Below are positions 4,395-61,836 of a stretch of DNA of 64,000 nt, one piece after another (the first letter of the stretch is position 1; the number at the start of each line of letters is the position of its first letter). The stretch lies in assembly GCA_016181845.1 (NCBI GenBank), contig JACOYO010000001.1:33133-97132 (forward strand), written 5' to 3'. Below the pieces are notes generated by a model that did no database searches, had not been told where the DNA came from, and saw only the letters and a list, made by a program, of their open reading frames with translations. This stretch comes from Parcubacteria group bacterium (lineage in GTDB: Bacteria; Patescibacteriota; Minisyncoccia; Phycocordibacterales; 21-14-all-47-15). The position numbers and the translations under genes are program-made.

Positions 4395-5462
4395 CTAATC
4401 TATGCTAATACGTCTCCCTGGAGCAATCGAGGTGTGCAGTTCGGATTCTCGCTCGGCATGTTTTAAATCCGCTTCCGCCATCATTTGTGCCAATTTTTTA
4501 AAAGTAATTTTTGGTTTCCAACTCAAGACTTTCCGCGCTTTTCTTGGGTCTCCCAACAGTAAATCAACCTCGTTTGGTCTGAAATGTTTCGGGTCAATCT
4601 TGATAATAGTCTTGCCTGTTTTTCGGTCAACTCCCGTTTCTTTCAAGCCCCTGCCACGCCATACAATATCCATACCTAAATGATTCGCCGCCTCTTCGAC
4701 AAATTCCCGCACCGTGTGAGTCTCGCCGGTCGCAATCACGAAATCATCAGGCTTTTTGTGCTGTAAAATCTTCCATACAGCCTCCATATAATCTTTCGAG
4801 TATCCCCAGTCGCGTTTTGCATCAAGATTTCCAAGCATAAGCACCGGCTCAAGACCAAGCCTCACGCGCGACAAGCCAAGAGTGATTTTTCTTGTCACGA
4901 AATTAAATCCACGCCGCGGTGACTCGTGGTTAAAGAGAATCCCATTTGAAGCAAAGATGCCGTATCCATCACGAAAAATTTTTGTAATATGAAACGCAAA
5001 TACTTTTGAAAGCCCATACGGCGATTGAGGATTGAACTTGGTATTTTCATTTTGCGGAGTAGCGAGCACCTTGCCAAACATTTCAGAAGAGCTCGCCTGA
5101 TAGTATTTTGCCGGTAAATCAAAATTACGAATGGTTTCCAAAATGCGAAGTGGCCCGAGCGCATTCACATTCGCCGTATACTCCGGTTTATCAAAACTGA
5201 TTCGCACATGGCTTTGCGCCGCAAGGTTATAGATTTCATCCGGCTCTATTTTGTGAATAATACGGACCAAGTTAGAACTGTCAGATAAATCTCCGTATGC
5301 CATAAAAAGATTCGGGTCGGACAAATGGTCCAAGCGAATAGTATTCGGCATGCTTGAACGCCGCTGAATGCCATACACCTGGTATCCCTTCTCCAAAAGA
5401 AGCTCGGTCAAATATGAGCCGTCTTGTCCTGTTATGCCTGTGATTAATGCTTTTTTTGCCAT
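4395..5462 (-). CDS. gmd: GDP-mannose 4,6-dehydratase
   Basis: ALITGITGQDGSYL, YNLAAQSHV, NHESPRRG and RDWG motifs. Confidence 0.97.
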   Translation of the reverse strand: MAKKALITGITGQDGSYLTELLLEKGYQVYGIQRRSSMPNTIRLDHLSDPNLFMAYGDLSDSSNLVRIIHKIEPDEIYNLAAQSHVRISFDKPEYTANVNALGPLRILETIRNFDLPAKYYQASSSEMFGKVLATPQNENTKFNPQSPYGLSKVFAFHITKIFRDGYGIFASNGILFNHESPRRGFNFVTRKITLGLSRVRLGLEPVLMLGNLDAKRDWGYSKDYMEAVWKILQHKKPDDFVIATGETHTVREFVEEAANHLGMDIVWRGRGLKETGVDRKTGKTIIKIDPKHFRPNEVDLLLGDPRKARKVLSWKPKITFKKLAQMMAEADLKHAERESELHTSIAPGRRISID

Positions 5463-5495
5463 TTGCAGAATGAAACTAAAGATTGGCTAATAATA

Positions 5496-6026
5496 TCACT
5501 TGTTTTTAATGAAGGCAATAATATCCTTTGCGCCTTGCCGTATAGCGGAATGAAAATCGGAATGACTGACGTGCTCTGGAGATACCCATTGCAATGCAGC
5601 GTATTCGTCATTTGGCTTAAGCGCTGCCATTTCCTTATCGGTAATCGTTGCAGTCATTGTTATAGAAACCGTGTGTGAACCATTCTCAATCGGCTCTTGC
5701 GCCCTTTCTCCCCAGACCAAAGAGTACGTTCCGATATAAGACAGGCGCGACACTTCAATATCCAAACTAAGTTCTTCTTTTAATTTTCTAGAAGCCGCTT
5801 CTTCAAAACTTTCTCCCGGCATCATCCGCCCGCCGATAATCCACCAATCGGGCCATGGGGCTCTTGTTCTTTTTCCAAGCAATATTTCTCCGCGATTGTT
5901 GATAACCGCAATATCGGCAGTGGCAACCACCACACTATCAAGCACTTTTGCATACTCCTCAGCACTTAAAGACGCAGCATGACGATTAAACGCGCCAGTT
6001 ACAAAATGATGGTAATTCATTTTCAT
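5496..6026 (-). CDS. NUDIX hydrolase, GDP-mannose mannosyl hydrolase-like
   Basis: GGRMMPGESFEEAASRKLKEEL Nudix box, next to gmd; start uncertain (6020-6044). Confidence 0.75.
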   Translation of the reverse strand: MKMNYHHFVTGAFNRHAASLSAEEYAKVLDSVVVATADIAVINNRGEILLGKRTRAPWPDWWIIGGRMMPGESFEEAASRKLKEELSLDIEVSRLSYIGTYSLVWGERAQEPIENGSHTVSITMTATITDKEMAALKPNDEYAALQWVSPEHVSHSDFHSAIRQGAKDIIAFIKNK

Positions 6027-6043
6027 ATGATAACATCTCCGCA

Positions 6044-6850
6044 TTAAACAAAGTCACTTTTGAGTAACCCGGTATCTGTTTCTTCCAATCTCCATCCGAC
6101 CGCTCCGCAAATTTCCTTCAAGTGTCCCGCGTTAGCGGTTTTTGGTATCACAACGATATCTTGGCTGATTAACCAATTGAGCGCTATTTGAATTGGCGTT
6201 TTTTGATATTTTTTACTCAAGGTATTGAGTATTTCTTTTTGCTCGAGCGCCAGCTTTCCTTTTGCAAGCGGGCGGTGCGCAATTACTTTTATATTATTCT
6301 CTTTGCAAAACGGAATAATTTCTTTCTCCGCCGAACGTTCGAGCAAGCTGTATTCGATTTGATTTGCCGCAAGAGTCGTCTTGCTCAAATACGATTGCGC
6401 CTCCTCCATAATCGGCACGGAAAAGTTGCTGACGCCGATATGGCGCACTTTTTTATTTGATACCAATTCCTCAAGCGCCCGCATAGTCTCCAGCAAAGGC
6501 GCCGCTTCGTTCGGCCAATGAATTAAATATAGATCAATATAATCGGTCTGTAACCGTTTCAGACTTTTCTCTGCCGCTGCCAAAACAGCATCATGGCGCA
6601 GATTGGTCTTCCAGACTTTTGTAATGAGAAAAATATCTTCTCTGTTGTGTCCTTTTATGGCTTGCCCTACTATCTCCTCGGTCAACCCTTCCCCATACAA
6701 TTCTGCCGTATCAATAAGCCTTATGCCGAGAGCAAGTCCTTGTTTCAAAATAGAAATTGATTGTTCGATATTGCTTTCGTCTCTTTCATATTTTCCGCCC
6801 ATGCCCCACGTACCCATGCCAAGCGCCGGAATGTTCATTTCTTTACCCAT
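6044..6850 (-). CDS. Aldo/keto reductase
   Basis: GMGTW, IDTAELYG, DLYLIHWP and IGVSNF motifs. Confidence 0.95.
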   Translation of the reverse strand: MGKEMNIPALGMGTWGMGGKYERDESNIEQSISILKQGLALGIRLIDTAELYGEGLTEEIVGQAIKGHNREDIFLITKVWKTNLRHDAVLAAAEKSLKRLQTDYIDLYLIHWPNEAAPLLETMRALEELVSNKKVRHIGVSNFSVPIMEEAQSYLSKTTLAANQIEYSLLERSAEKEIIPFCKENNIKVIAHRPLAKGKLALEQKEILNTLSKKYQKTPIQIALNWLISQDIVVIPKTANAGHLKEICGAVGWRLEETDTGLLKSDFV

Positions 6851-6855
6851 GTTTC

Positions 6856-8094
6856 TTATACAATGATTACTGCAGGCGTTGGTATGATAAATTTCCCCTT
6901 ATATCCGGCACCCCTTATTTTCGGAATCAATTCATCTGCAATGTTCCAGGAAAGGAGGAGCGCGTATTCCGGTTGGTCAACAAATAAACGGCTTTCCGGC
7001 ACGACGGGGATGCGTGTGCCGGGCGCAAAAAGACCGATTTTTAATGGGCTTTTTTCAACCAAATAATCAACGAGGCCAGGATTTGATGCGCAAAAATTGA
7101 GAAGCGTATTGCCTTTTGCCGGCGCGCCGATACCGACAACCCGCTTCCCCATACCCCGCTGTTCGGAAATGAATTTTTGAATGGAAATTTTATTTTGATT
7201 TGCCTTTTCGGCAAAATCGGCATATGTTTCTTTTTTATACAACCCCGCCGCTTCTTCTTTGTTGATAAGATGTTCAACAGTATCAAGCACTTTATGAGCC
7301 CCCTTTTTTGCTGCATAGATGCGGATTGAGCCGCCATGGGTAGAAATTTTTTCCGCATCAAACATTTCCAGCCCGTGAGCCGCAAACAACATCTTGAGCG
7401 GTTTCAATGAATAATACCGCAAGTGCTCATGATACACGGCGTCATATTGCAGTTTGGTAATCATATCGAGCAAATACCCCGATTCCGATACAAACACTCC
7501 ATCCTGAGTAAGCAGTTCCGCAACGCCGGCCAAAAAATCATTCAGTTTATTAACATGAGCAAAAACATTCGTTGCAGTTATTATTTTCGCATTGCCGTAT
7601 TTTTTCTCCACTTGCATAGCCACTGTCTTGGAAAAAAAATCAACGAGAGTCGGTATGTTATTTTTCAAAGCCAATTGAGCCGAGCTTGACGGGTCAATTC
7701 CTAAAATTTTCACACCGTACGGCACATAATTCGATAAAAGTGTCCCGTCGTTTGAACCGATATCAATTGCAAAATCGGTATTTTTTAATTGGAAACGCTC
7801 TATCAAGGTCTCAACGAGATTGTAAAAATTAACCTTGAGACTGTTGTTGGTCGCAGTATTGTATACATAATCCACAAACAATTTTTCCGGCGGAACAATA
7901 TGGTTTAGCTGAACCAAACCGCATGTCTCGCAAAAACAAAGTTCAAGCGGATATGTCGCTTCCGGTTTGCAAAGGTCTTCTGATTTCAAAAAAGCATCGC
8001 TTGGCGGCTGGTGCCCCAAATCAAGGAAATTAAAGAAGGTTGTGTTGTCGCAAATAAAACAATGCATGCCATTACTTATCAAATCGATAGACAA
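6856..8094 (-). CDS. NDP-hexose C-methyltransferase (Zn-binding N-terminus, C-MT C-terminal domain)
   Basis: CFIC...CETCGLVQL, DIGSNDG, YHEHLRYYS and GAPAKGNTLLN motifs. Confidence 0.9.
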   Translation of the reverse strand: MSIDLISNGMHCFICDNTTFFNFLDLGHQPPSDAFLKSEDLCKPEATYPLELCFCETCGLVQLNHIVPPEKLFVDYVYNTATNNSLKVNFYNLVETLIERFQLKNTDFAIDIGSNDGTLLSNYVPYGVKILGIDPSSSAQLALKNNIPTLVDFFSKTVAMQVEKKYGNAKIITATNVFAHVNKLNDFLAGVAELLTQDGVFVSESGYLLDMITKLQYDAVYHEHLRYYSLKPLKMLFAAHGLEMFDAEKISTHGGSIRIYAAKKGAHKVLDTVEHLINKEEAAGLYKKETYADFAEKANQNKISIQKFISEQRGMGKRVVGIGAPAKGNTLLNFCASNPGLVDYLVEKSPLKIGLFAPGTRIPVVPESRLFVDQPEYALLLSWNIADELIPKIRGAGYKGKFIIPTPAVIIV

Positions 8095-49192: not shown

Positions 49193-49981
49193 ATGCAAGA
49201 AAAGAGAAGGGAAAAGAAAAAAATGCGGTGGAGAAAACAAAAACGCCAAGCCAGCTCTTTTTGGGAAAAAGAATATAAGAGCGGCGAGCATTTGGCTCTC
49301 TCGACAAGCGCGAGCGAAGACCTGCAAAAATTCACGCGGTGGCTTTCGCGCGAAAATGATAATAAAACCTTGCGATATATCGAAAGGTTTTTACCAGTAA
49401 ATAAATACTCGACGACAAAAGCATCCGTTGCTGATTTAGGCACCGGCAATGGGAGAAATCTTATATACCTTGCAGAAACGTTCGGCATGAAAGGCACTGG
49501 ATTTGATATTTCCCGCGAGGCGATTGAACAGGCAAAAATCGCGAGCAAAAACAAAAATTTGCCGCTTGAATTTTTCGTGCGCTCAATCGCGGAGCCAATT
49601 CCACTGCCCGATAATTCACAAGACATCGTCCTTGATATGATGACCTCGCATTTTTTAAACAACTCCGAGCGAGCGATCCTCCTTTCCGAAATCGCGCGCA
49701 TTTTGAAACCGGGCGGCTTTCTTTTTTTCAAAACATTTCTTCTTGATGAGGATATTCACGCGGCGCGTCTTTTGCGCGAGCACCCAGCGGGAGAACCGGG
49801 CTCATACATTCACCCTGAAATCGGCAAAGCCGAGCATGTATTCACCGAAAATGAAATCGTTGCTCTCTTTTCTCACTATTTCACGATACGAAAAATTACC
49901 AAATCGCACCGCCACAAAATCAAAGGACATGCCGCCAAACGCAGAAGCATTTCCGTATACGCAGAAAAAGAAATCCGTTAA
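49193..49981 (+). CDS. Class I SAM-dependent methyltransferase
   Basis: ADLGTGNGRN, GFDIS and RILKPGG motifs; start uncertain. Confidence 0.85.
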   Translation: MQEKRREKKKMRWRKQKRQASSFWEKEYKSGEHLALSTSASEDLQKFTRWLSRENDNKTLRYIERFLPVNKYSTTKASVADLGTGNGRNLIYLAETFGMKGTGFDISREAIEQAKIASKNKNLPLEFFVRSIAEPIPLPDNSQDIVLDMMTSHFLNNSERAILLSEIARILKPGGFLFFKTFLLDEDIHAARLLREHPAGEPGSYIHPEIGKAEHVFTENEIVALFSHYFTIRKITKSHRHKIKGHAAKRRSISVYAEKEIR

Positions 49982-50075
49982 TTTTTTTGTTGGAACTGAA
50001 AACCCATATTCGCTCAATATTTCCATTTGCTTAAGAAAAGGGTTGCTTTTAAATCAAACGCATGTTTGGTATCAA

Positions 50076-50100
50076 AAATATGACAATAATTTTGTCGTCA
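50076..50100. promoter_or_regulatory. 25-bp motif identical to the reverse complement of 56344-56368
   Basis: AAATATGACAATAATTTTGTCGTCA. Confidence 0.75.
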
Positions 50101-50413
50101 CTTTTTCAAAGTTGTCCAAAAATTTGGCTTTGAAAAAACGGCTTCATATAATAATATAATATATATATTTCAATGATAAGCGGGGGAATTTTACTAATCA
50201 TGTATTTCAAACGGTAAAAAAATTATCAAAAAATGTTTTGGGCATATAGTTGTAGCAGAAAATAGTTTGATTGAAAATTTTTTATGTACTTCGGTAATGG
50301 TTCAGGAAAGGAGGCTCGGGGAGCATACACCTCTTATGCTGTAAAACATGTTGGCTTTCCCCAGCGCCAACACGCACCAACATTCATATCAAAATTCTAA
50401 ATGGGAGGAGCGT

Positions 50414-51517
50414 ATGAAAAAGATTTTAATTGCGGTTCTATCTGTATTCTTCCTTGTTGCCATGGTTGCAATTGGAATAAATACGGCGAGCGCCGCAGAA
50501 GATCCAAGCGCAAAAAAGGTGGCGTCTTTGTTTGAGGGATGGAAAGCGAGTGGCCATGTATTGTTTGGCGCGAATCTTTCCAATAAACGAGCCGCGCACG
50601 ACGCAGAAATGTATTTTGACCGCGGACGATTGGATTTAAAAAAAGAGGGTCTCTCGTTTTTTAAAGAACATGACGGCGGATTACGGTTTACGTTTGAGAC
50701 CTTCAACGATGCGAATTCAAAAAAGCCGGAATTCTTCCTGAAATATGTATATCCGTGGATTAAATTGACCGATGATATTACATTGCAGGCCGGATATATT
50801 CCGACACCGCTTGTCGGGCCGGAGGAAATGGAAATTCGATGGCTCGGTGAAGAAATCGGAAAATCCCTTATTGATACGCACCTGAAAATGTCCTCAAGAA
50901 CGCTCGGTGCCGGATTAGAATACACATTCCCCATCGGTAAAATATACGCGACCGCCGGCGAAGGTTCGTATAATAGCGGAAACGCAATTGAGGGGATTGT
51001 TGAACTTACGCCATTCAAATCATCGGAAAATTTTTTGAAGTATTTCTTCGCGCATGTAGGCGGTATGTATAACATGACCGCCGAGGAAGCAAATGCTAAT
51101 AGTTCAACTCTGTGGCTGGCGCGCGCCGGTTTTAAAGAAAAAGGCGTCTATAGCATATCCGGCATGGTCTTGACGACAAACGGACCGTCTTCGCGGCTTG
51201 CGAAAGAGTATCCCGGCCTTACAAAATATTTCAAAAACCAAGACATTGAAAACAGCGGTTTTGAACTGCTTGGGCGCGTATATCCCTGGAAAATTATCAG
51301 TGGTGATAGCGTCAGTGAAATGAAGAAGGTGTGGATTATGGCGCGACACAGAAACATTACCGGCGATTTTGATTACACTCAAAACTTGTTCATGACAGGT
51401 TATGACATAAGCAATAACCTGCAAATCGGTATCGGTACCGCCATCTCTTCAGCATCGGCAAATACCAGTATTGCAGACAACGCAAAAGTCGTTGTCGCTC
51501 TCCAATTAAAATTCTGA
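50414..51517 (+). CDS. Putative outer-membrane beta-barrel porin (OprO/P-like)
   Basis: GGAGG SD; signal peptide; amphipathic beta-strand pattern; C-terminal VALQLKF beta-signal. Confidence 0.65.
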   Translation: MKKILIAVLSVFFLVAMVAIGINTASAAEDPSAKKVASLFEGWKASGHVLFGANLSNKRAAHDAEMYFDRGRLDLKKEGLSFFKEHDGGLRFTFETFNDANSKKPEFFLKYVYPWIKLTDDITLQAGYIPTPLVGPEEMEIRWLGEEIGKSLIDTHLKMSSRTLGAGLEYTFPIGKIYATAGEGSYNSGNAIEGIVELTPFKSSENFLKYFFAHVGGMYNMTAEEANANSSTLWLARAGFKEKGVYSISGMVLTTNGPSSRLAKEYPGLTKYFKNQDIENSGFELLGRVYPWKIISGDSVSEMKKVWIMARHRNITGDFDYTQNLFMTGYDISNNLQIGIGTAISSASANTSIADNAKVVVALQLKF

Positions 51518-51531
51518 ATTTTAAAACATAA

Positions 51532-51564
51532 AAACCCCCATGCAATAAAATCGCATGGGGGTTT
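51532..51564. terminator. Bidirectional terminator between porin and molybdoenzyme genes
   Basis: AAACCCCCATGC...GCATGGGGGTTT. Confidence 0.85.
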
Positions 51565-51586
51565 AAACTATCTAAAAAAGAACAAA

Positions 51587-54238
51587 CTAAACTTTTTCAA
51601 TGGTGACAATGGTGTCCATCCATCGTTGCTGTCCTCCAATCGGGTCTCCTTTATTTGGAATAATCCAATTGGGGTGCACACCTTTGTCTTTCCACCAAAT
51701 TCTCGCAATGTCTTCGTCTTCCCTTCCAAACGGAGATTTGACAGTGCCGGCAGTCGCGGCTCTTCCATGAGCCCAATGCCCGCAATGATGGGAAATGGCG
51801 ATAACTCCCGGGATAATTCCTTCCCGCAAACTGGCCTCGGTAATAATAGAACCAATTTCAGAAGTTACTCTGATTTTATCGCCGTTGTGAATCTTAAATT
51901 GCCGTGCAGTAAGCGGATGTATCATCGCTGGATTGCGATGATACAGCTCGCTCAACAACCAATTTCCTTGCGTCCTAGAGTGCGTTTGTTCGGCAACTTT
52001 ATAGGTAGTCAGCACGAGCTGACTTTCCTTGAGATTCTCAAATTCCGGAATTGGCATCCACGCCGGTAAAGCGGGGAAACCTTTTTCTTCAAGAAACTTT
52101 GAGTAAATCTCCAACAAACCGCTTTTATTGATTTTATCCGGCGTGAATCCTTTATACGGAGTACCGTCGACTATCTGGCCAACGTAGTTTTTATACGCGT
52201 CTTTTGTCGTCGTATAATCTTCTTCCGATTTGCCTTTCCAGATTACACCGGTTTTTTTATCAACAATGGTTCCTTCCATATCCTCTGGTTTAAGAATTTT
52301 TGCGTGTCCGTCATATGACGGTTTTTGAGCGCGGTCATACCATGCGCCAAACCGTTTCATATATTCAAACCCACTTATTCCAAGCTCTGCGCCGGCATCT
52401 TTCACGCCAGGCGTATTTTCGCACGCATCGCGGACAACTTCTTCCGCGCTTTCTACCACAAACGAGCCATCTCCATCTTTCCCCATTCCGAGACGACGGG
52501 CGAGTTCACAAACAACATTCTGAAAATCGCTGGCTTCGCCAGGTAATGTTTCATACACCGGCTGGCGAATATAGAATTCAGGAATCTGATCCATAGAGGC
52601 CATATCTTCCCATGCCCATCGTTCTAAATAATTGGCATCCGGAAGAACCAAGTCCGCGTACTTTGTTCCTTCGCCATACCCGACATCAACGGCGACGCTA
52701 AACGGAATAATCGATTCATCTTTGAGGATGGCGATATTTTCCCGGCAATTGCCGTTTGCATATGCCGCATTGTAGCAATACGCCATGTATATTTCAGGGC
52801 GTCCGTATTTTCCTTCTTTGATTAAGCGCAAGACATCTTGTCCGGCATGATGGTTTGGAAACGCATATCCTTCGCCATCAAGAACTTTTAGCTTTTTCGG
52901 ATGCCCTTCTGGTTTCTTGAAAGAATTTTTCCACTTCGCGCCGATAGCCATCATTCGTCCGCCTTTGCGATTCGTGTATCCGCAAAGCGCTTCAAGCATG
53001 ATGACGGCGCGTTCCGTCATGACACCGTTGTAATGAGCCACCGCTCCGCGATACGAAATGATTGTTCCCGGTTTTGCTTTTGCATAGCCGACAGCAATTT
53101 CACGAATCGTTTGCGCCGGAACACCGCTTATCTTTTCTGCCCATTCCGGCGTGTAACCGGCTACATGGTCTTTGATTTGAACAATGGTTGTATTCGTCCA
53201 TTTCTCAAAAAATTCTTTGTCATAAAGCTCTTCGGAAATGACGACATTCGCCATCGCAAGCACAACCGCGAGGTCGGTTCCGGGTTTAATCGGAATCCAC
53301 TTCGTTGATTTCGCCGCTGTGTTGCTTAAGCGAACATCAAACGTATACATAGGGACATTTTTCCCGATCGCTTTCATAAGCCGTTGGGCGAGCGGAATAT
53401 GCGAGGTATGCGCTTCAAGCGGATTTGAACCGAAATTCAAAATAAAATTCGTATGCACGACATCGTTGACATCGTAATGTTTTCCCCACGTCAGCTCTTG
53501 CGCTACAAATTTTCCGCCTTCGCAAATCGTCGTATGGTTCCCTATTGTTTTCGTGCCATACGCGGAAAGAAAAAGGTCTTTGATCAAAGTGCTCGTTGAA
53601 CCTTTCATTCTTCCGTATTGGAACATGAAATATTCAGGGCGACCTTCGTCCCGAAGCGTCTTCAAACCTTTCACGGAACGGCCAGCAATTTCTCCGCCGT
53701 TTACTAAAAGATTAAGCGCCTCTTCCCAACCGATACGCTCCCATTGGTCATCGCCGCGCTTGCTTCCGTTTTTTCTTTTCATCGGATACAAGAGACGGTC
53801 CGGATCATAGAGATGCTGCCAGCCGGAACGGCCTTTTGCGCAGAGTCCGCCGTTGTTTCTCGGCAAATTAGGATTCCCTTCAATCCTCTTTACTTTGCCG
53901 GTCTTTGTGTCAACAACGAATATTGCTCCGCACCGAGATACGCATTGCCAGCAAGCGCTTGGGACAAACGTTTCATATTCGTTTGACAAGCCGGCGATAT
54001 TAATCGCCGCGGGTCTGCCCAATACGTTCGTGTCCGTTTTTTGCTCCACTGTCATCAACGCTTTTTCTACCGTAATAAACGGCGACTTTTTGAGCGCGGC
54101 CAAGGCGTCTTTTTTGTTATGAAAGACATGCTCTTCCACCAATTTGAGCGCGACAGCATACGCCGAACCGCTAAAGACAGTCGCTCCGCCAAAAACAATG
54201 CCGCATTTTTTTAAGAAATCTCTTCTGGATGTATCCAT
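51587..54238 (-). CDS. Mo/W-bisPGD oxidoreductase catalytic subunit (PsrA/ArrA/TtrA-type), Tat-exported
   Basis: SRRDFLK Tat motif; CWQCVSRC...LCAKG FS0 cluster; YDPDRL; NHTTICE (putative Cys ligand); ADLVLP..YLER; SD GAAAGGAG. Confidence 0.9.
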   Translation of the reverse strand: MDTSRRDFLKKCGIVFGGATVFSGSAYAVALKLVEEHVFHNKKDALAALKKSPFITVEKALMTVEQKTDTNVLGRPAAINIAGLSNEYETFVPSACWQCVSRCGAIFVVDTKTGKVKRIEGNPNLPRNNGGLCAKGRSGWQHLYDPDRLLYPMKRKNGSKRGDDQWERIGWEEALNLLVNGGEIAGRSVKGLKTLRDEGRPEYFMFQYGRMKGSTSTLIKDLFLSAYGTKTIGNHTTICEGGKFVAQELTWGKHYDVNDVVHTNFILNFGSNPLEAHTSHIPLAQRLMKAIGKNVPMYTFDVRLSNTAAKSTKWIPIKPGTDLAVVLAMANVVISEELYDKEFFEKWTNTTIVQIKDHVAGYTPEWAEKISGVPAQTIREIAVGYAKAKPGTIISYRGAVAHYNGVMTERAVIMLEALCGYTNRKGGRMMAIGAKWKNSFKKPEGHPKKLKVLDGEGYAFPNHHAGQDVLRLIKEGKYGRPEIYMAYCYNAAYANGNCRENIAILKDESIIPFSVAVDVGYGEGTKYADLVLPDANYLERWAWEDMASMDQIPEFYIRQPVYETLPGEASDFQNVVCELARRLGMGKDGDGSFVVESAEEVVRDACENTPGVKDAGAELGISGFEYMKRFGAWYDRAQKPSYDGHAKILKPEDMEGTIVDKKTGVIWKGKSEEDYTTTKDAYKNYVGQIVDGTPYKGFTPDKINKSGLLEIYSKFLEEKGFPALPAWMPIPEFENLKESQLVLTTYKVAEQTHSRTQGNWLLSELYHRNPAMIHPLTARQFKIHNGDKIRVTSEIGSIITEASLREGIIPGVIAISHHCGHWAHGRAATAGTVKSPFGREDEDIARIWWKDKGVHPNWIIPNKGDPIGGQQRWMDTIVTIEKV

Positions 54239-54269
54239 AATCAATTCTCCTTTCTTTCGTTGGCAATGT

Positions 54270-55157
54270 TTATGCGAGCGGAAGCGTGAGACCGCCGATA
54301 ACAACGGCATATCTCATCGCGAAAATACCAACCATGACCAGAATAGACGCAATCGTATAGCTTGCTACTGTTTTTTTGGAAAGCAATAGCGCAAGAGGAA
54401 CAAGCGCTCCCAGAAAAATTTCAACTCCCAAAAAGATCGGGGCAAAACTTCCCTGTGTTAAGAAAACAAAAGCCGCAAACGCCTCTTTTGAACCATACGC
54501 CAATGTCAGGAGATCGGTGCCGATTAAAAACATATCAAGCGCGATCATCCACACAAGCATGCCGCCAAGGTCAAAGATTAATTCCTTGCCAAATCGTTTT
54601 TCTTCCGGTAATAAAACATTCGCGAAAGATAAAAGGATAATAACAAGCGCCAATCCTGACACGGTCGCCGAAACTAAAAATAGCGTCGGCATAAGCGCCG
54701 TGTGCCAGAGTACGCGTGATTCAACAAGGCCTAAAATAAAGCCGGTGTAACCGTGTACCGAGATAGCGAGAGGAATGCCGATAGCACCAAACAATTTCGT
54801 AAGCGACCAATTCTTATTCCACATAAAATATCCGTACACAAGACAATTGATCGGATACAGAATCAGAAGAATCGTGCCCCAGCTTATTGCCGATGTTGCG
54901 TTAAAAGTAAAAAATAAATACCAAAAACGCATCGGTTGTTCCAAATCCGCAATAAGAAAAAGTGGCGCGATAACGAGCAATACAAATGCCAATACAAGAG
55001 CCGGCATCGCGATTTTTTTATATTTTTCTACACCGAATACATACGCGAGAGTCGATAACACGAACGACCCGGCGCTTAATCCGGTGAAGTAAAAATACAA
55101 CGCGATAAGCCAGCTCCACGCGGGGCCATTCGCAAAATCAGAGATTACTTCCGTCAT
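54270..55157 (-). CDS. NrfD/PsrC-family membrane anchor subunit
   Basis: WSWLIALYFYFTGLSAG, DLEQPMRF, SAISWG and YTGF motifs; about 8 TM helices. Confidence 0.9.
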   Translation of the reverse strand: MTEVISDFANGPAWSWLIALYFYFTGLSAGSFVLSTLAYVFGVEKYKKIAMPALVLAFVLLVIAPLFLIADLEQPMRFWYLFFTFNATSAISWGTILLILYPINCLVYGYFMWNKNWSLTKLFGAIGIPLAISVHGYTGFILGLVESRVLWHTALMPTLFLVSATVSGLALVIILLSFANVLLPEEKRFGKELIFDLGGMLVWMIALDMFLIGTDLLTLAYGSKEAFAAFVFLTQGSFAPIFLGVEIFLGALVPLALLLSKKTVASYTIASILVMVGIFAMRYAVVIGGLTLPLA

Positions 55158-55200
55158 GGCGTGTCCCTTTCTATAACAAAGGTTAATGAAAATTTCTTAT

Positions 55201-55986
55201 TCATTTTTCCATGTTTATCGGGTCAGTCTTCGCATGGACGGTATACTCATCCAAACCGATATAATAGACCTTCGGTTCAGTGCCGTGTTCCGAACCCAAA
55301 CGTTGTACCGAGTTTTGGCTTATCGTTTTACTGATTTCACTATTCGGGTCATTCAAATCCCCGAATATCCGCGCGCCGTAACGGCACGCGTCAACACAAG
55401 CCGGCAATTCGCCACGAAGAACTTTGTGCATACAAAAAGTGCATTTATCAGCAGTTTCTTTTTTGGGATCCATGTACCGCGCCCGATATGGACAAGCGCT
55501 AACGCACATGCCGCATCCGATACATTTATCGTATTGGATGAGCACGGCGCCAGATTTATCTTTGTAAGTCGCACCTGTGGGGCAATTTTTCTCACAGGGC
55601 GCCTTATCGCAATGCATGCACAATCTAGGCATGAAGTGTCGCGACACATCCGGGAATTTTCCACAGTCAACAACCTTCACCCAAGACCGAAATACACCCG
55701 GGGAAATATGATTTTCAGACTTGCACGCGACGTGGCATGCTTTACATCCAATGCATTTCCGCAGATCAATAACCATTCCCAATCTCTTTCCGGTTTCCTT
55801 GCCATTTTCTGTAAGATTTTTTTCTACAACAGTGGCAATAACCGGTTCAGGTAATGCGGCGCCTCCGACAACGACTCCGGCCGCTATAGCCGCGTTTCTT
55901 AAAAAATGCCTTCGGTCAATATGCCCGGTATCGTCCACGATTGAACATTCCTTAATGTCATTCGCTTCTTTTTTATTTTTTTCCAT
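55201..55986 (-). CDS. 4x[4Fe-4S] electron-transfer subunit (NrfC/PsrB/TtrB-like) with Tat motif
   Basis: DRRHFLR; CIGCKAC, CMHC..PC..CP, CIGCGMC..CPY, CTFC...ACV..C. Confidence 0.93.
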   Translation of the reverse strand: MEKNKKEANDIKECSIVDDTGHIDRRHFLRNAAIAAGVVVGGAALPEPVIATVVEKNLTENGKETGKRLGMVIDLRKCIGCKACHVACKSENHISPGVFRSWVKVVDCGKFPDVSRHFMPRLCMHCDKAPCEKNCPTGATYKDKSGAVLIQYDKCIGCGMCVSACPYRARYMDPKKETADKCTFCMHKVLRGELPACVDACRYGARIFGDLNDPNSEISKTISQNSVQRLGSEHGTEPKVYYIGLDEYTVHAKTDPINMEK

Positions 55987-56343
55987 AACGTCCCGCTCCT
56001 TTCAAAAGTATACGGCGTTGCATTATTAAGTAACGCTAGTGCCAGAAAAAAATTCCTTCAGGTGAGATTCACCTTATAGCCAAATTCAAGCGAGCAACCA
56101 TTTCTTTCTGTTCAGTAGTTCAGATTGGATAATTCTATATTGTCAAAAAGCTTCTGCCATAACGGCATATTAAAATTCTCATTCTGGCTAACAGAATACT
56201 ACTAAAAAATTTCTTGACAAATTTTATGATTATTTTAAATACTTAATAAAAAATCATCGCGATAATGATCTGAATTATCTAAACAAAACCTATATGCAAA
56301 GCCGTTTTTCTTGACAAAAAAATTATTGATACTATCATAAATA

Positions 56344-56368
56344 TGACGACAAAATTATTGTCATATTT
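56344..56368 (+). promoter_or_regulatory. Putative TrmB operator abutting the start codon
   Basis: Lies within the palindrome AAATATGAC-N12-GTCATATTT; TTGACA and -10-like sequences just upstream. Confidence 0.65.
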
Positions 56369-57100
56369 ATGCATTTACAACACACCATACAGCAATTGGG
56401 TTATACGCCAAATGAAGTAAGGGTATATCTTACCTCGCTTGAATTAGGTGAAGCGACCATTTCAGAGATTGCAGAAAAGGCAAAATTGCCGCGAACAAGC
56501 GTCCAGTTGATTATTCACGATTTGCATGCAAAGCGCCTTTTGTATTCATACGCCAAGAACCGCCGAAAATGCTATATCGCTGAAAATCCGGAAAAGTTGC
56601 TTATTCAATTGCGAGAACGCGAGGCGGCGCTGAAAGAAATATTGCCAGAATTGCACGGCATAAGGCACGAGACTGGCGTAAAGCCGACCGTACGTTCGTA
56701 TAATGGCACCGGTGGCATTTGGAATATCCTCAACGATATTCTGGAAACGAAACAAAATCTCCGCTCTCTTTCGTCAATTGACGACATGTCTTTGCTTCTT
56801 GGCGATGAATTCAATGATTTTGTTACCCTGCGACATAAAAACAATCTCCGCGTTCAATTGCTCACTCCGCGCTCCAGAGAAACAGAGGCGCTTAAAAAGC
56901 GCGACTCGCTTGAATTGCGGGAAGTGCGTTTTCTTAAACCTGAAGTAAAAATTCACAACGCAAACTTTATTTACGGAGAAAAAGTCGCCATTATATCACT
57001 TAATAAAAAACTGCCCGTTGGAATCATTATTAAAGACAGGGACATCGCCGCCACACAAGCAATGCTTTTTGATACGCTTTGGGAAACAAGCAGAGAATAA
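56369..57100 (+). CDS. TrmB-family transcriptional regulator
   Basis: LGYTPNEVRVYL..L...RTSV HTH; AENPEKL; IYGEKVAII. Confidence 0.9.
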   Translation: MHLQHTIQQLGYTPNEVRVYLTSLELGEATISEIAEKAKLPRTSVQLIIHDLHAKRLLYSYAKNRRKCYIAENPEKLLIQLREREAALKEILPELHGIRHETGVKPTVRSYNGTGGIWNILNDILETKQNLRSLSSIDDMSLLLGDEFNDFVTLRHKNNLRVQLLTPRSRETEALKKRDSLELREVRFLKPEVKIHNANFIYGEKVAIISLNKKLPVGIIIKDRDIAATQAMLFDTLWETSRE

Positions 57101-57569
57101 AAACATCGGGGCATTTTCGTGTGCGCAGAAAAAAAGTGACGCGCCAATTTATAGAAATAGTTCTTTGTGTTAAATCAGCATGTTTTTTGTGCTCAAGACA
57201 CACTGAATTGATGCAGTAGCGTTTTCCTCTCGGTGTGTGGCCGTCGTCAAACACATGCCCTAGATGCGAGCCGCATGTTGCACAAACCACTTCGGTGCGA
57301 TGCATGCCGTGCGAATCGTCGGTGATATATTCCACCGCGCCAGGAAGAGCGCTGTCAAAAGAAGGCCAGCCGGTGCCGGAATCAAATTTTGCATCGGAAG
57401 AAAAGAGTTTGTTTCCGCACACTTTGCACGCATACATTCCCGCTTCGTTTGTCTTTGCATACACGCCCGAAAAAGAGGCTTCGGTACCCTTATCACGCAA
57501 GACGGCATACTCTTCGGATGTGAGCCGTTTTTTCAATGCTTCTTCGTTTTTGATATATTTGTTATTCAT
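57030..57569 (-). CDS. msrB: Methionine-R-sulfoxide reductase with an abnormal C-terminal extension
   Basis: GTE, CKVC, KFDSGTGWPSF, HLGHVF and RYCINS motifs. Confidence 0.92.
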   Translation of the reverse strand: MNNKYIKNEEALKKRLTSEEYAVLRDKGTEASFSGVYAKTNEAGMYACKVCGNKLFSSDAKFDSGTGWPSFDSALPGAVEYITDDSHGMHRTEVVCATCGSHLGHVFDDGHTPRGKRYCINSVCLEHKKHADLTQRTISINWRVTFFLRTRKCPDVFILCLFPKAYQKALLVWRRCPCL

Positions 57570-57588
57570 ATAATTTATATCGCGTCTT

Positions 57589-58074
57589 TTATACATGGCA
57601 TGCGCCGCCGCCGTGTTTTTCAAAATACCGCTGATGATATTCTTCGGCACGATAAAACGGACTGGCTTTGGTAATTTCCGTCACGATAGGATTATTAAAT
57701 TTTTTTGACGTATCAAGCGTTTCTTTAGATTTTCGCGCCGCGATTTCCTGTGTCGCGCTATGAAAAAATATCGCCGAACGATACTGCTCTCCAACATCGG
57801 GACCCTGACGGTTTGCTGTCGTAGGATCGTGCATATCCCAAAACGCCTGGAGCAAAACTTCGTATGAAACTTCTTTCGGGTCAAAAAGCACATGAACGGC
57901 CTCCGCATGCCCAGTTTTTCCTCCGCATACGTCTTCATACGTTGGATGTTTTGTGTGTCCACCCACATAGCCGACGATGACGTCTTTCACCCCTTTGATT
58001 TTTCTAAACGCCTCCTCAACGCCCCAGAAACATCCTGCGGCAAACGTTGCTTTTTCAAGATTGATGGTTGTCAT
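57589..58074 (-). CDS. msrA: Methionine-S-sulfoxide reductase
   Basis: GCFWG, GHAE, HDPT and AEEYHQRY motifs. Confidence 0.96.
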
Positions 58075-58114
58075 GAAATACAGCGCCTTATTAACGACAC
58101 CTGTTTGTATCACG

Positions 58115-58378
58115 CTATTTCAACTCGGAAAACTTCTCTCGCAATTCTTTTTCGGTTGTCCCGCCCATGGCAAACAGCTCATCATTGATGATAATTCCAG
58201 GGCTCGACATAATACCGTATTTCCCAATGAGTTCCTGGCCTTCGGGAGTTGTCATGTCTACTTCCCTGACATCAAGTTCGGGATACTCCGAGCCTATTTT
58301 TTTTAATAATTCCTTGGTTTGCGCGCAGTGTATACATCCTTCGCGAGTTACTAGAGTCATTTTAATTGTTTTGCTCAT
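58115..58378 (-). CDS. Thioredoxin/glutaredoxin-like protein
   Basis: CIHC active site; YGIMSSP cis-Pro loop. Confidence 0.85.
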
Positions 58379-58535
58379 AATGATTTGATTTTTTAATTTT
58401 TTTAATATGCTTGGCTGCGACTATTGCCAAGATGATAATAAGAAACGCCAAAACAGGACCAAGAGCATTGTCAATCGTTACAGTCGTAGCGCCCTCCTCA
58501 TGGGCATATGCAATTTGAATAATAGAAAAATTCAT
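58362..58535 (-). CDS. 57-aa single-TM protein, missed by the ORF track
   Basis: MNFSIIQIAYAHEEG...LAFLIIILAIVAAKHIKK; ATGA overlap with the ccdA stop. Confidence 0.6.
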   Translation of the reverse strand: MNFSIIQIAYAHEEGATTVTIDNALGPVLAFLIIILAIVAAKHIKKIKKSNHYEQNN

Positions 58536-59503
58536 AATGATTGACTTTGTGTTAATTTTTTGCGCTCCACAAACGCGTCACAAATAATAACCGCTCCGAC
58601 CATAAGCCCGATTAGCACCCACGGCAGTATTGTTGCGGTTCCGCCTTGAATGTTTAGCAATACTTCTATGTCCGCGCTCTCAGCGATACTTGGCAATGCT
58701 TTCGTGATTAAATTATTCCATGCGACATGAAATATTGATTCTTCCCAAAATGCCATCTTGAATGGAAGATACTGAAAAAGATAGGCGCCAATGCCGACCA
58801 GCCCCCAGCCCATTGCTCTTTCAATTTTCGTTTGCTGACGGCTTACCCAATCAATTGTGTTAATCCCCAAAATGGCAAGAATGGTTAAGAAAATAAGCGG
58901 CGTGGCTCTACCCAAACCGTGTATCACTCCTAGGGTAATCCCGTCTCCAACATTGCCGACAGTCGCAATATAGGTCAGCAAAACATAAAATGCGGGGTTG
59001 GGACAGCCCACACCGGCATTGCCCAAGAAAAGACCCATAAAAAATGATTTTGAATAATCACCGCTTTTTTGCAAGCGCGTCGGCAGAACCTTCGCCATGA
59101 AAGGCAAGCGTAGGGTGAACAGCCGCAATTCAGACAGCCCGAAAATAAATGCCATTGCTCCGGCAATGCCGAACATGAAACGGATAAGAGTATTCATGCC
59201 GATATATTGCCCGAACCATGAGACAGCCGCTCCATAGATGCTCAAAGTGATTGCGAGCCCAAGACCAAAAAGAATCGCCATCGTAAGCCCCTTCACTGGC
59301 GATTGCCGCATTGCAAGCGGAATAATCACGAATACCAATGGCAGTGTGCATGGCAGAAAAATCATGGAAAGACCGGCCGCGTATGCAAATACTAGACCGG
59401 CTTGCGCTCCGGGCGTGGTGACTAGCCAAAAAATGCCGATGATTGTTATTGAGAGAAGGAGAAAAGAAAAAATTATCAAACCGTTGCGGATTTTGGATGT
59501 CAT
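58532..59503 (-). CDS. ccdA: CcdA/DsbD-type transmembrane thiol-disulfide transporter
   Basis: AGLSMIFLPCTLP and GVGCPNP Cys motifs; multiple TM helices. Confidence 0.8.
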   Translation of the reverse strand: MTSKIRNGLIIFSFLLLSITIIGIFWLVTTPGAQAGLVFAYAAGLSMIFLPCTLPLVFVIIPLAMRQSPVKGLTMAILFGLGLAITLSIYGAAVSWFGQYIGMNTLIRFMFGIAGAMAFIFGLSELRLFTLRLPFMAKVLPTRLQKSGDYSKSFFMGLFLGNAGVGCPNPAFYVLLTYIATVGNVGDGITLGVIHGLGRATPLIFLTILAILGINTIDWVSRQQTKIERAMGWGLVGIGAYLFQYLPFKMAFWEESIFHVAWNNLITKALPSIAESADIEVLLNIQGGTATILPWVLIGLMVGAVIICDAFVERKKLTQSQSL

Positions 59504-59599
59504 ATTACTTTTTCATAAACAATTTTGCGTTGTTGATAATTTTTTGAATTATTTGGTCAATTTTCTATAGTATAATCAAATTCCATACGCATTCTCATT

Positions 59600-60100
59600 T
59601 TAGCACAGAGTACAAACTTTACTTATCTTTCTTGCCGTCAGATAAATAGCAATGAGCAAAGCCAGGATTATGACAACAACAAAATACAACCGATAGTTCA
59701 GAGCAAAGACAACGCCACCAAATCCAATACCGAAAAATGAGAATAACGGTGCGAGACAAGAAGTGCAAAATGCCGTGCCGGCAATGCCGGCAAACAATGC
59801 ACCAACGCCTCCACTGACTGTGGTTCCTAATCCGTCAATCTTTTTTTTCTGACGCATAACATATATCTGCATCGTCATAAAAAGAGAATATAGTCCTGAA
59901 AGTAATCCGACCACTAAATAATCACGCAAAGTAAATATTTCAAGTTGTGTTGCGACAGTATTCCCAGCCACGGTAAATACAGGAATAAGTATAAAAAGAA
60001 TAAACATCACTACAAAAGCCAATAAAAATAGCACGATATAATTTTTGTCTTTAAATGGCGTTTTGATGCCGAACCAAGTTGTCAAGAAAATATTCTTCAT
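59600..60100 (-). CDS. Membrane protein with an intramembrane CxxC and a C-terminal CxxC (MerT/MerC-like)
   Basis: AFCTSCLAP and KVCTLC; directly downstream of merA. Confidence 0.6.
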   Translation of the reverse strand: MKNIFLTTWFGIKTPFKDKNYIVLFLLAFVVMFILFILIPVFTVAGNTVATQLEIFTLRDYLVVGLLSGLYSLFMTMQIYVMRQKKKIDGLGTTVSGGVGALFAGIAGTAFCTSCLAPLFSFFGIGFGGVVFALNYRLYFVVVIILALLIAIYLTARKISKVCTLC

Positions 60101-60101
60101 A

Positions 60102-61508
60102 TTAAATACAGCAACTTAGTTGTGAGAGATCTTTGGTGAATGAGAGTGCAACATATTTGACTGCTTCTGACATTGTTGGAAACACTGGTTCAGAGTTAAG
60201 CACATCATCAATGGTATTTTTGTTTTTAACGAGCACCATTGCTTGGGCAATAAGATCAGCGGCGTTTGGAGCAAGAATATGAACTCCTAAAATAACTTTG
60301 GTCTTTGGGTGGATTCCCATTTTAATAAGTCCTTCTGTTCTGCGTGTGATACCTGCCTTTGGTATTACCTCAAAAGGCACGGTGCGACATGCGCATACGC
60401 CGTCTCTTTCCATTTGAGCGTCTTCAGTAAGTCCAACACTTGCATATCCCGGGTCAGTAAATATTGCATATGGAACAGTATCGTAATCAATACTGTTTTT
60501 CTCTTCATTAAGTGCATTTAGAGTAGCAATGGTGCCTTCATGACCAGCGGTTGTCTCTAGTCGTAGTGGTAAATTAGTTACATCTCCCACAGAATAGATA
60601 TACGGCACATTTGTCTTAAAATTAGTATTTACGACAACTGCTTTTCGTTCGTTTACATCAACACCTGGAATATCAAGGTTGAGTGATTCTGTGTTTGCTG
60701 TCTTACCTGCCGCAAGTAAAATTTCATCTACTGCAACTTCCTCGGTTTTTCCATTTATTGTGTACGAGAGAACTTTTTTACCGTTTTCACTTCGGGCGCT
60801 TTTAACTTCCGCGTTGGTTTTAATGATGATACCTTCTTTCTCCAGTAACTCTGCGAGCCTGGTTATAAGCTCAACTTCACCGTGAGGGAATATTCTTTCT
60901 CTGCTTTGTAGAATGGTGCATTTCGTACCAAATCGGGAATACATTTGTGCAAATTCAAGCCCAACTGGACCGGCGCCAATAATTGCCAACTCTTTTGGTT
61001 GTTCTTTCAACTTTAATGCCTCAACGTGCGTTATATATCCTACTTCTTTAATCTTGTCTATTTGCGGCACGTTGGCGGTAGAGCCGGTGGCGATAATGAA
61101 TTTATCTGCTGTAAGTTTTTTTCTATTAACCACCACTTCTTTTTCACCTGAAAACGAGGCTCGTCCTTCTATGTAGGTCACGTACTCCAGACTCTTTAGC
61201 ACTTTTTCATATTTTTCATTTCTAAACCCACCAACCATTTTCAGTTCATCGTCAATAACTTTATTGAAATCAAAGTTTTTTACTTCAAGCTCAATGCCTG
61301 AAACACCGTGGTTTTTCGCCATATAGAGCACTTCTCCCGCATGAAGCAGTAGCTTGGAAGGCACGCATCCAACATTCACACATGTTCCACCTGCGGGTAG
61401 TCCGCTATTAATAATCGCTGTCTTCTTTTTTAATTCGTTTGCTTTTATAGCAGAAGCAAATGCTGACGCTCCTCCTCCTAATATAATAAGGTCGTATTGA
61501 TTATTCAT
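60102..61508 (-). CDS. merA: Mercuric reductase, core enzyme without NmerA domain
   Basis: GGTCVNVGCVPSK redox disulfide; GAGPVGLE; C-terminal LSCC. Confidence 0.88.
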   Translation of the reverse strand: MNNQYDLIILGGGASAFASAIKANELKKKTAIINSGLPAGGTCVNVGCVPSKLLLHAGEVLYMAKNHGVSGIELEVKNFDFNKVIDDELKMVGGFRNEKYEKVLKSLEYVTYIEGRASFSGEKEVVVNRKKLTADKFIIATGSTANVPQIDKIKEVGYITHVEALKLKEQPKELAIIGAGPVGLEFAQMYSRFGTKCTILQSRERIFPHGEVELITRLAELLEKEGIIIKTNAEVKSARSENGKKVLSYTINGKTEEVAVDEILLAAGKTANTESLNLDIPGVDVNERKAVVVNTNFKTNVPYIYSVGDVTNLPLRLETTAGHEGTIATLNALNEEKNSIDYDTVPYAIFTDPGYASVGLTEDAQMERDGVCACRTVPFEVIPKAGITRRTEGLIKMGIHPKTKVILGVHILAPNAADLIAQAMVLVKNKNTIDDVLNSEPVFPTMSEAVKYVALSFTKDLSQLSCCI

Positions 61509-61810
61509 ATATTGTTTAAGATATTTTTTAAAATTTTATTAAATCCCATATTGGCAAGTTTATAATATACGATTTTGTGGTCTCGGCGTGAATCAACAAG
61601 ATAATTTTCACGTAATCTCTTAAGAGAGTGCGACACAACGGATATAGAAACATCTAATATATCGGCAATTTCTCCTACAGAAAGTTCAGGGTGCTTACAC
61701 AACAACCAGCAAATCTTCATACGCGTAGGGTCGCCAACTAAACCAAACTGTTCAGCACATTGAAGTACTGATTCCTCATTCTCTAGCTCCTTTTTAATTT
61801 TTTTAGTCAT
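61505..61810 (-). CDS. ArsR/SmtB-family repressor
   Basis: DPTRMKI...VSHSLKRLR...YYKL; start at MTKK. Confidence 0.9.
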   Translation of the reverse strand: MTKKIKKELENEESVLQCAEQFGLVGDPTRMKICWLLCKHPELSVGEIADILDVSISVVSHSLKRLRENYLVDSRRDHKIVYYKLANMGFNKILKNILNNI

Positions 61811-61836
61811 ATCACTTGAACGTATATTCAAATGAT
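61811..61836. promoter_or_regulatory. ArsR/SmtB-type operator
   Basis: Inverted repeat ATCACTTGAA-CGTATA-TTCAAATGAT immediately upstream of the arsR ATG. Confidence 0.7.

Follow-up and report, generated by a model that had tools for sequence, protein, structure and literature searches.

An acquired molybdoenzyme and porin module in a Parcubacteria-type genome in which genes for its cofactors were not found

A unit of five genes was found in a 64,000-nucleotide stretch of the Parcubacteria group bacterium assembly GCA_016181845.1 (contig JACOYO010000001.1, positions 33,133 to 97,132 of the forward strand; this whole stretch is called the window below). The genes encode a TrmB-family regulator, an iron-sulfur (FeS) subunit, an NrfD-type membrane anchor, a MopB-type catalytic subunit, and a predicted porin. 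The module is real, rare, and apparently maintained in a bacterium lacking what the module needs. With somewhat less than even confidence, and from sequence evidence, we read it as an acquired, outward-facing electron sink that would run on molybdenum cofactor (Moco) and quinone derived from a host organism. The observed basis is gene content, conservation, and a common dyad; every mechanistic step beyond these is inferred. An earlier, sequence-only reading of this DNA had picked out the three enzyme genes. The convergent porin gene (50414-51517), the divergent trmB (56369-57100), and their shared operator are additions to it.

The five-gene cassette

The enzyme genes are open and lie on the minus strand in the order FeS, NrfD, MopB (B-C-A), as the sequence-only reading had described. 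The FeS subunit (55201..55986, 261 aa) has profile matches, four Cys motifs for 4x[4Fe-4S], and its own twin-arginine translocation (Tat) signal, DRRHFL. The NrfD/PsrC-type membrane anchor (54270..55157, 295 aa; PF03916, E 6e-41) is 72% identical to a Nitrospina copy. MopB (51587..54238, 883 aa) carries the Tat signal SRRDFL, the FS0 cysteines Cys96/99/103/133, the metal ligand Cys239, and an ArrA-like pocket (R210/H235/T236/K243/Y255). Its start is the ATG at 54238 (MDTSRRDFL, with AAGGAG before it), not the ORF-finder start at 54310, and the exact protein is present in a public collection. The domains PF00384, PF04879, and PF01568, the FS0 cysteines, and the protein metal ligand place MopB among the complex iron-sulfur molybdoenzymes (CISM) of the DMSO reductase superfamily; the 4x[4Fe-4S] subunit, NrfD, and Tat export are those of a CISM complex with an NrfD anchor. 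No stop codon or frameshift interrupts the 5.4 kb of coding DNA.

A twin-arginine regular expression was run over all six-frame open reading frames (ORFs) longer than 100 aa in the genome. It returned three matches: the FeS subunit, MopB, and a 121-aa ORF opposite ribosomal-protein genes. The first two are the sole credible ones, which bears out the two Tat motifs noted earlier; the GRMKG and NHTTICE segments named with them are likewise present (Y208-G213; Cys239). Also as noted before, the 57 window proteins scanned matched no Moco, TorD, or tat family. NrfD gave no match to PDB sequences, and its residues D71, S89, Y137-T138, and R282 align by eye with the quinone-site and gate residues that the available text of PMC8076601 places in an NrfD-type protein. 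A likely terminator, a 15-pair hairpin with a T tail (51532..51564), separates the convergent mopB and porin genes.

The porin gene (50414..51517, plus strand) encodes a predicted 16-stranded outer-membrane porin of 367 aa. The protein has no Pfam or NCBIfam match. Porin clusters of the ESM atlas were matched at 0.97, the AlphaFold2 model (pLDDT 81.7) has 16 long strands, and the best Foldseek matches are Omp32 and PorB (E 2-3e-12). On the predicted structure, the barrel, the N-terminal hydrophobic leader, and the C-terminal Phe are those of a 16-stranded general or anion porin. Homologues fell into three clusters in a word-based search, with four more distant ones in a profile search. Several of them are on contigs equal in size to those of the closest MopB relatives (10,041, 8,609, 7,592, 6,006, and 7,466 bp). 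None of 10 candidates for the porin in viral contigs was confirmed, and in a search without a positive control it was not found in four genomes holding a related MopB.

The regulator gene trmB (56369..57100, plus strand) is divergent from the operon. By its profile match and its named relatives (Ca. Paceibacterota/Pacebacteria), the product belongs to a Paceibacteria-associated group of the TrmB family. A 25-bp imperfect dyad, likely the TrmB operator, abuts the trmB start codon upstream of the operon (56344..56368, minus strand). An identical dyad lies upstream of the porin gene (50076..50100, plus strand), within a 167-bp stretch (50073-50239) that is a 70%-identical duplicate of the trmB-operon intergenic region. 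The 25-mer is also unchanged in contig L054, which has diverged to 77% identity in the intergenic region, and no third close copy was found in the genome. On the trmB strand TTGACA-16-TATCAT (56311-56338) directly precedes the dyad; on the porin side a -35/-10 match, by consensus only, follows it (50124-50152). The position of the dyad at the trmB start fits an autoregulatory site that TrmB would likely bind, and the porin and the operon are likely co-regulated through the common dyad.

Next to the cassette lies a redox and mercury-resistance block (window 57030-61831) with msrB, msrA, glutaredoxin-like and DsbD/CcdA-like genes, a membrane protein, merA (above cut-off), and an ArsR-family regulator.

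Affiliation of the catalytic subunit

MopB falls below the cut-offs of the PhsA, ArrA, TtrA, and DmsA models and is 23-30% identical to TtrA, DmsA, PhsA, and the ArxA of strain ORIO. Judged by models and identity the enzyme is not Ttr, Psr, or Arr, and it is probably not Srd. In the available text of PMC10100899, MopB families are set at identities of at least 40% and novel Cys-ligated lineages are noted. By alignment, the enzyme belongs to an uncharacterised Cys-ligated "YGRMK/HTxIC" MopB clade with an ArrA-like pocket. The clade is large: the best 120 matches are all at least 52% identical. In a quick 48-row tree, with which a quick 23-row tree agrees on the close branches, MopB groups with P0002 and P0139, then with P0003; this group has the Nitrospina clade as its sister, and both fall within an uncharacterised clade with good support. 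The phylogeny called for by the sequence-only reading was realised in part, as the trees set this clade apart from Psr/Phs and hold no ArrA, AnrA, SrdA, or SrrA.

The pocket was compared by sequence alignment. H235, T236, C239, K243, and Y255 correspond to His189, Ser190, Cys193, Lys198, and Tyr210 of ArrA. The presumed ArrA substrate contacts given in the available portion of PMC10654088 are His189, Ser190, Lys198, Tyr210, and Tyr166; four of the five are matched, with Thr for Ser190, and Tyr166 is Met here. Among 115 clade members, H235, T236, K243, and Y255 are kept in 114-115 and R210 in all.

The comparison with characterised systems gave likeness and difference in each case. ArrAB(C) and ArxAB (PDB 6cz7; Cereibacter azotoformans ORIO, whose plasmid cluster was classed as arx by its GRGWG motif) share the Cys ligand and the Arg/His/Ser-or-Thr/Lys/Tyr pocket positions. 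The motifs stated in the accessible part of PMC6549141 are (R/K)GRY for ArrA and XGRGWG for ArxA. In contrast, MopB has YGRMKG and reaches 181 of 1600 bits with the ArrA model; it lacks XGRGWG, is 30% identical to ArxA, and is encoded in B-C-A rather than arxB2ABCD order. No ars or arx regulators were found near the cassette. PsrABC/PhsABC (PDB 2vpw) share the Cys ligand and, in Psr, the NrfD-type anchor, and they gave the best model score (PhsA, 310 bits) and the best PDB match (185 bits). However, the PhsA cut-off is 694 bits, PhsA is 29% identical, Psr/Phs lack the pocket Arg and Tyr of this clade, their order is A-B-C, and they are separate in the trees.

The sequence-only reading had matched the operon to ttrBCA/srdBCA, and these do share the B-C-A order, Tat signals on B and A, and the NrfD anchor. 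The match did not hold up: TtrA is ~1020 aa, 23% identical, and scores 129 of 1750 bits (a comparison that covers TtrA, not SrdA). The order and the two Tat signals are not diagnostic either, since Azoarcus KH32C shows the same order in an arsenic-island cluster. Antimonate reductase genes are ordered anrXSRBAD, and the X-S-R-B-A and B-A-TorD arrangements seen in relatives (L047-L049) are likened to them by gene arrangement only. AnrA is described as an Sb(V) reductase in the available text of PMC12183865 and PMC13284237.

The nearest named member of the clade is on a Nitrospina sp. metagenome-assembled contig (JABIAY010000072.1). It shares the B-C-A order and the two Tat signals, with identities of 73% (MopB), 72% (NrfD), and 54-58% (FeS), 68% nucleotide identity over 4.2 kb, and a sister position in both trees. 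In contrast to the cassette, these genes lie directly downstream of modABC-like genes in a diderm of 3.2 Mb that makes Moco (MoCF_biosynth genes present), with no porin match in the genome and no trmB beside them. Nitrospina as donor was not shown; the close form occurs in 1 of 120 Nitrospinota genomes, which fits a co-recipient or sister.

In larger genomes, relatives of the enzyme adjoin TorD-like, Moco, modABC-like, PhnD-like sensor, acr3, or porin-like genes. As in the Arr and Arx systems, more distant relatives (L048 and Azoarcus L088) adjoin PhnD-like sensor/kinase/regulator genes and acr3. In another relative (L049:6277-13041), two barrel-like ORFs without Pfam match immediately precede a related FeS-MopB-TorD-like set in a Moco-type cluster, as judged by eye. 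The best guess at the substrate, at about even odds, would be an oxyanion of As, Sb, Se, or S, turned over in either direction. Polysulfide or thiosulfate would be the less probable alternative.

Origin and maintenance in a Parcubacteria-type genome

The assembly has 741,763 bases in 11 contigs, one of which (C7) contains the window, with a completeness of 100% (a figure that counts marker genes only) and a contamination of 0.36%. Genomes of the same order have 0.4-1.2 Mb. In the ribosomal cluster S5 abuts L15, with no L30 ORF between them, and L1 does not follow L11. Missing L30 and L1 are hallmarks of the Candidate Phyla Radiation (CPR) and of Parcubacteria. By its small genome, the absence of L30, its CPR relatives, and the lack of detected electron transport chain (ETC) and quinone synthesis genes, the bacterium is of Parcubacteria type (CPR/Patescibacteria), an assignment made without a named marker-gene tree.

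Pfam scans covered the 57 window proteins and 565 of the 612 predicted proteins of at least 95 aa outside the window (E 1e-14 or 1e-16). Most remaining proteins, 11 tile-boundary proteins, and 41 ORFs masked by the gene caller (9 of them also scanned) were read by eye. The gene content is that of a fermentative bacterium: type IV pili, glycolysis, the pentose phosphate pathway, amino-acid catabolism, an H+-pyrophosphatase, and Suf/Isc-type genes; no match to NADH dehydrogenase, hydrogenase, or oxidase was seen in the genome-wide Pfam scan. A sensor kinase (C5:2332-5070; 71% identical in the same-genus genome G001) has a ferredoxin-reductase-like N-terminus, judged by eye, followed by PAS domains. 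The 2,272-base contig C6 carries phage- or plasmid-like replication ORFs and may be non-chromosomal.

The genes are intact and chromosomal, and the cassette junctions are non-chimeric. Four groundwater sequencing runs (X1-X4) were used, all from one study and three of them possibly the source of the assembly. Single contigs of X1 (49364-58042) and X2 (49364-58403) bridge both junctions with no differences, and in X3 each junction is bridged separately. In X2 the depth is 10.0 on the bridging contig and 10.9-11.9 on the listed flanking contigs. The coverage check that the sequence-only reading had proposed at 50 kb and 56.3 kb speaks against the chimera it was meant to detect. Codon use and GC3 of mopB and nrfD resemble those of the genome.

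Among phylum genomes, NrfD is over its cut-off in 1 of 401, which is this one. The 400 other genomes of the order that were searched gave no close MopB; three weak matches are 26-31% identical, one at a formate-dehydrogenase-like locus and one on a 1.4-kb contig. In G001 (67% complete) there is no match to MopB or tatC. A second genome, of the same family (G002), retains a 41-aa 3' remnant of trmB (76%), 2.4 kb from msrB and without the cassette. The remnant is followed there (L131:5360-6757) by a 384-aa FBP aldolase/phosphatase-like gene, so classed by eye, whose Shine-Dalgarno (SD) context is like that of mopB. Horizontal acquisition by a CPR bacterium, as had been suggested earlier, is supported, the rarity of NrfD included.

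Relatives of TrmB, NrfD, MopB, and the porin fall on contigs of the same size, so two further TrmB-linked lineages probably carry the whole module. Linkage here means equal size of the contigs carrying each protein; among these contigs only the DNA of L054 was read. The 10,041-bp contig would carry TrmB (92%), NrfD (90%), MopB (85%), and the porin (82%). A 5,564-bp contig would carry TrmB (95%) and NrfD (96%); an 8,609-bp contig would carry MopB (84%), the porin (89%), and an NrfD that is 99.7% identical to the one on the 5,564-bp contig. A 3,415-bp size match between porin and TrmB (P0146, P0167) may be due to chance and was not counted. Homology to L054 ends at about window position 49999. 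The proposed dN/dS check was run against L054 and gave 0.088 for the porin (367 codons, dS 0.58) and 0.051 for the MopB C-terminus (55 codons), which indicates purifying selection on the porin. Departures from 265 conserved columns number 24-29 in TrmB-linked copies and 26-28 in Nitrospina-clade copies; by this measure the cassette copies appear no more decayed.

Supply of cofactors and competing explanations

Absence searches were made in six frames with positive controls for each family, except ModA (one query, without control). MoCF_biosynth (MoeA/MogA), MoaC, TorD, ModA, UbiA/MenA, and ATP synthase were not found in the genome. No radical SAM protein of any kind was found, which covers MoaA, and MobA-family matches occur only in sugar-synthesis clusters. 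Moco-pathway genes, MoCF_biosynth among them, are in none of six related CPR genomes tested. ATP synthase is over its cut-off in 10 of 20 relatives, which makes its absence ordinary. As oxidative phosphorylation, the respiratory capacity raised by the sequence-only reading is not borne out, because no ATP synthase was found. The genome-wide search it had proposed came out divided: moa/moe/mob, TorD, and quinone genes were not found, while tatC and tatA do exist elsewhere in the genome. A fatty acid desaturase (C9:16125-16955) and a UbiB/ABC1-type kinase (C8:39121-40758) are present, though no quinone synthesis gene was found. A LOG-family protein considered as Moco carrier was rejected, being of the TIGR00730 type.

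In the proposed electron sink, TrmB would switch the porin and the operon together. TatAC would export the B and A subunits after their loading with Fe-S clusters (Suf/Isc-type assembly genes are present), NrfD would be their docking site, and a Mo/W-bisPGD cofactor and quinone would be scavenged from a host. Proline dehydrogenase (C10:91940-92965), the sole candidate quinone reductase found, may pass electrons from proline and ornithine breakdown to scavenged menaquinone, from where they would flow through NrfD and the Fe-S wire to Mo and an acceptor, likely an oxyanion. Proline dehydrogenase is over cut-off in 6 of 251 order genomes, this one included. Amino-acid catabolism is rich for a genome of this size, with an aldehyde dehydrogenase (C10:30936-32537), a glutamate dehydrogenase (C10:18430-19683), an ornithine aminotransferase (C7:103737-105089), a 2-oxoacid:acceptor oxidoreductase, and two tryptophanase/tyrosine phenol-lyase genes. 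Without a detected ATP synthase, the cell would profit not by oxidative phosphorylation but by redox balance or by proton-motive force through the H+-pyrophosphatase (C8; L031:12822-14819). Caenorhabditis elegans takes up Moco across species, according to the available text of PMC7849362, and is alike in that a molybdoenzyme is supplied with cofactor made by another organism. It differs in being a eukaryote with dietary uptake of a simpler cofactor form, whereas the bacterium here would need finished bis-MGD.

Several observations weigh against this electron-sink reading. The activity, metal, and cofactor of the enzyme are predictions from sequence, and its pocket has Met in place of ArrA Tyr166. 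We know of no prokaryote that takes up intact bis-MGD; no Moco carrier was found in the genome, and because no MobA or TorD was found, the finished cofactor would need both import and unaided insertion. TatC is over cut-off in 45 of 401 order genomes (~11%), mostly without MopB, and is not specific to the operon. It lies on a separate island of ~18 kb (C2:1-15,500 and C5:1-2,300) beside tRNA-Thr, with tatA and large surface FG-GAP proteins, and is 78% identical to the TatC of another order member. At the syntenic site G001 lacks the island, and an arrival of tatAC together with the operon was rejected on these grounds. Proline dehydrogenase also occurs in four order genomes that show no match to MopB, as well as in G001, so it does not require this sink. 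The step explained worst is the porin, which would need the outer membrane and BAM machinery of a host: Omp85/BamA was not found in this genome in six frames (the control was positive in 7 of 14 genomes). In run X4 the contigs are interrupted at 50154/50181 and 56199/56272, within the duplicated promoter regions or next to them. The genes for tRNA-Asn and tRNA-Asp were not found in the assembly, so some DNA may be missing. The selection estimate comes from one partner (L054), and the genomes that hold the sister contigs are unread. SD-like motifs precede all four cassette genes, three of the four strong, compared with strong motifs in 28 of 403 genes genome-wide, several of which look acquired. 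The 16S rRNA region (C1 ~5400-7720) contains a LAGLIDADG ORF and its 16S 3' end lacks an anti-SD, so kept SD motifs are expected of foreign genes; they mark foreign origin and do not separate the functional readings.

Since the porin fits an electron sink poorly, a second explanation stays alive, although we consider it unlikely: the products would act in the envelope of a host. The porin would be inserted by the host BAM, the enzyme would draw on host Moco and the host quinone pool, and the result would be altered host respiration or detoxification of an oxyanion at the contact site. One assumption would then cover all missing parts (Moco, TorD, quinone, BamA), and the porin under purifying selection, the common operator, and the SD motifs kept although they cannot pair with this ribosome would all fit. 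However, there is no known delivery route for the integral NrfD, Tat would put B and A outside the symbiont and not in the host periplasm, and SD retention equally fits slow decay of foreign sequence.

A little less likely again is an explanation in which the cassette is a non-functional relic, acquired from a diderm anaerobe and as yet undecayed, and the sister copies belong to the donor group, not to CPR. The unread genomes of the sister contigs, the end of L054 homology, and the foreign SD motifs agree with it; the lone trmB remnant in G002 and the lack of MopB and tatC matches in G001 suggest that gain and loss are frequent. On the other hand, TrmB of the sister cassettes is 92-95% identical to the TrmB of this genome, which has its named relatives in Ca. 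Paceibacterota/Pacebacteria, and the remnant in G002 lies by msrB. The genome-like codon use, the uninterrupted coding DNA, and an operator that is duplicated and exactly conserved also speak against a relic.

Genes for Moco, quinone, and envelope could instead lie on DNA missing from the 11-contig assembly, so that the bacterium makes its own cofactors. The two undetected tRNAs and a completeness that counts marker genes only point this way, as does a diderm relative (L049) with the enzyme amid moa/moe/mob-like genes, judged by eye. This is improbable: with the completeness and contamination given above, several separate pathways would all need to be missing from the assembly, none of the six related CPR genomes has MoCF_biosynth, and the lack of ATP synthase is ordinary. 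About as improbable is a Mo-free, quinone-free electron conduit or scaffold, comparable to the OmeA/OmeB/HupX module of Dehalococcoides or to ActB/QrcB. It would remove the need for Moco and quinone, and Fe-S assembly genes are present, but Cys239 and the pocket residues are unchanged, conserved-column divergence is no greater than in Moco-making Nitrospina, and a partner reductase was not found. An assembly chimera or a non-CPR genome is very improbable: the four runs come from one study (three possibly the source), no listed contig covers the whole 19.9 kb, and X4 breaks near both cassette ends, but X1 and X2 bridge both junctions, X3 bridges each, independent contigs tie the cassette to the same TrmB, and genome size, the missing L30 and L1, and the 0.4-1.2 Mb relatives fit CPR.

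The available text of PMC7507113 describes Patescibacteria as having no complete ETC, with putative complex IV homologues of likely horizontal origin in 14%; isolated ETC pieces are therefore already known in the group. The main texts of PMC5220378 and PMC12455944, as far as accessible and supplements aside, do not mention molybdenum enzymes, and no description of this MopB clade was seen in the available portions of PMC12183865, PMC13284237, PMC13768755, PMC3578206, and PMC11462812. At title and abstract level no report of this cassette was found; the supplements of PMC7507113 and PMC10100899 could list one.

Selection apparently keeps a complete complex of three subunits, together with a porin and a regulator, without the needed cofactor, quinone, and outer-membrane machinery. 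The bacterium could be, as we tentatively suggest, auxotrophic for Moco and quinone and yet make active use of a bis-MGD enzyme. It would be a symbiont that lacks an outer membrane and may, under its own regulator, deploy the porin and perhaps also the enzyme in a host envelope, tapping host redox chemistry. Two questions become testable with the cassette: can bacteria obtain finished Moco and quinone from a host, and do CPR symbionts put proteins into the envelope of a host? The MopB clade to which the cassette points is large and uncharacterised, with a pocket like that of arsenate reductase.

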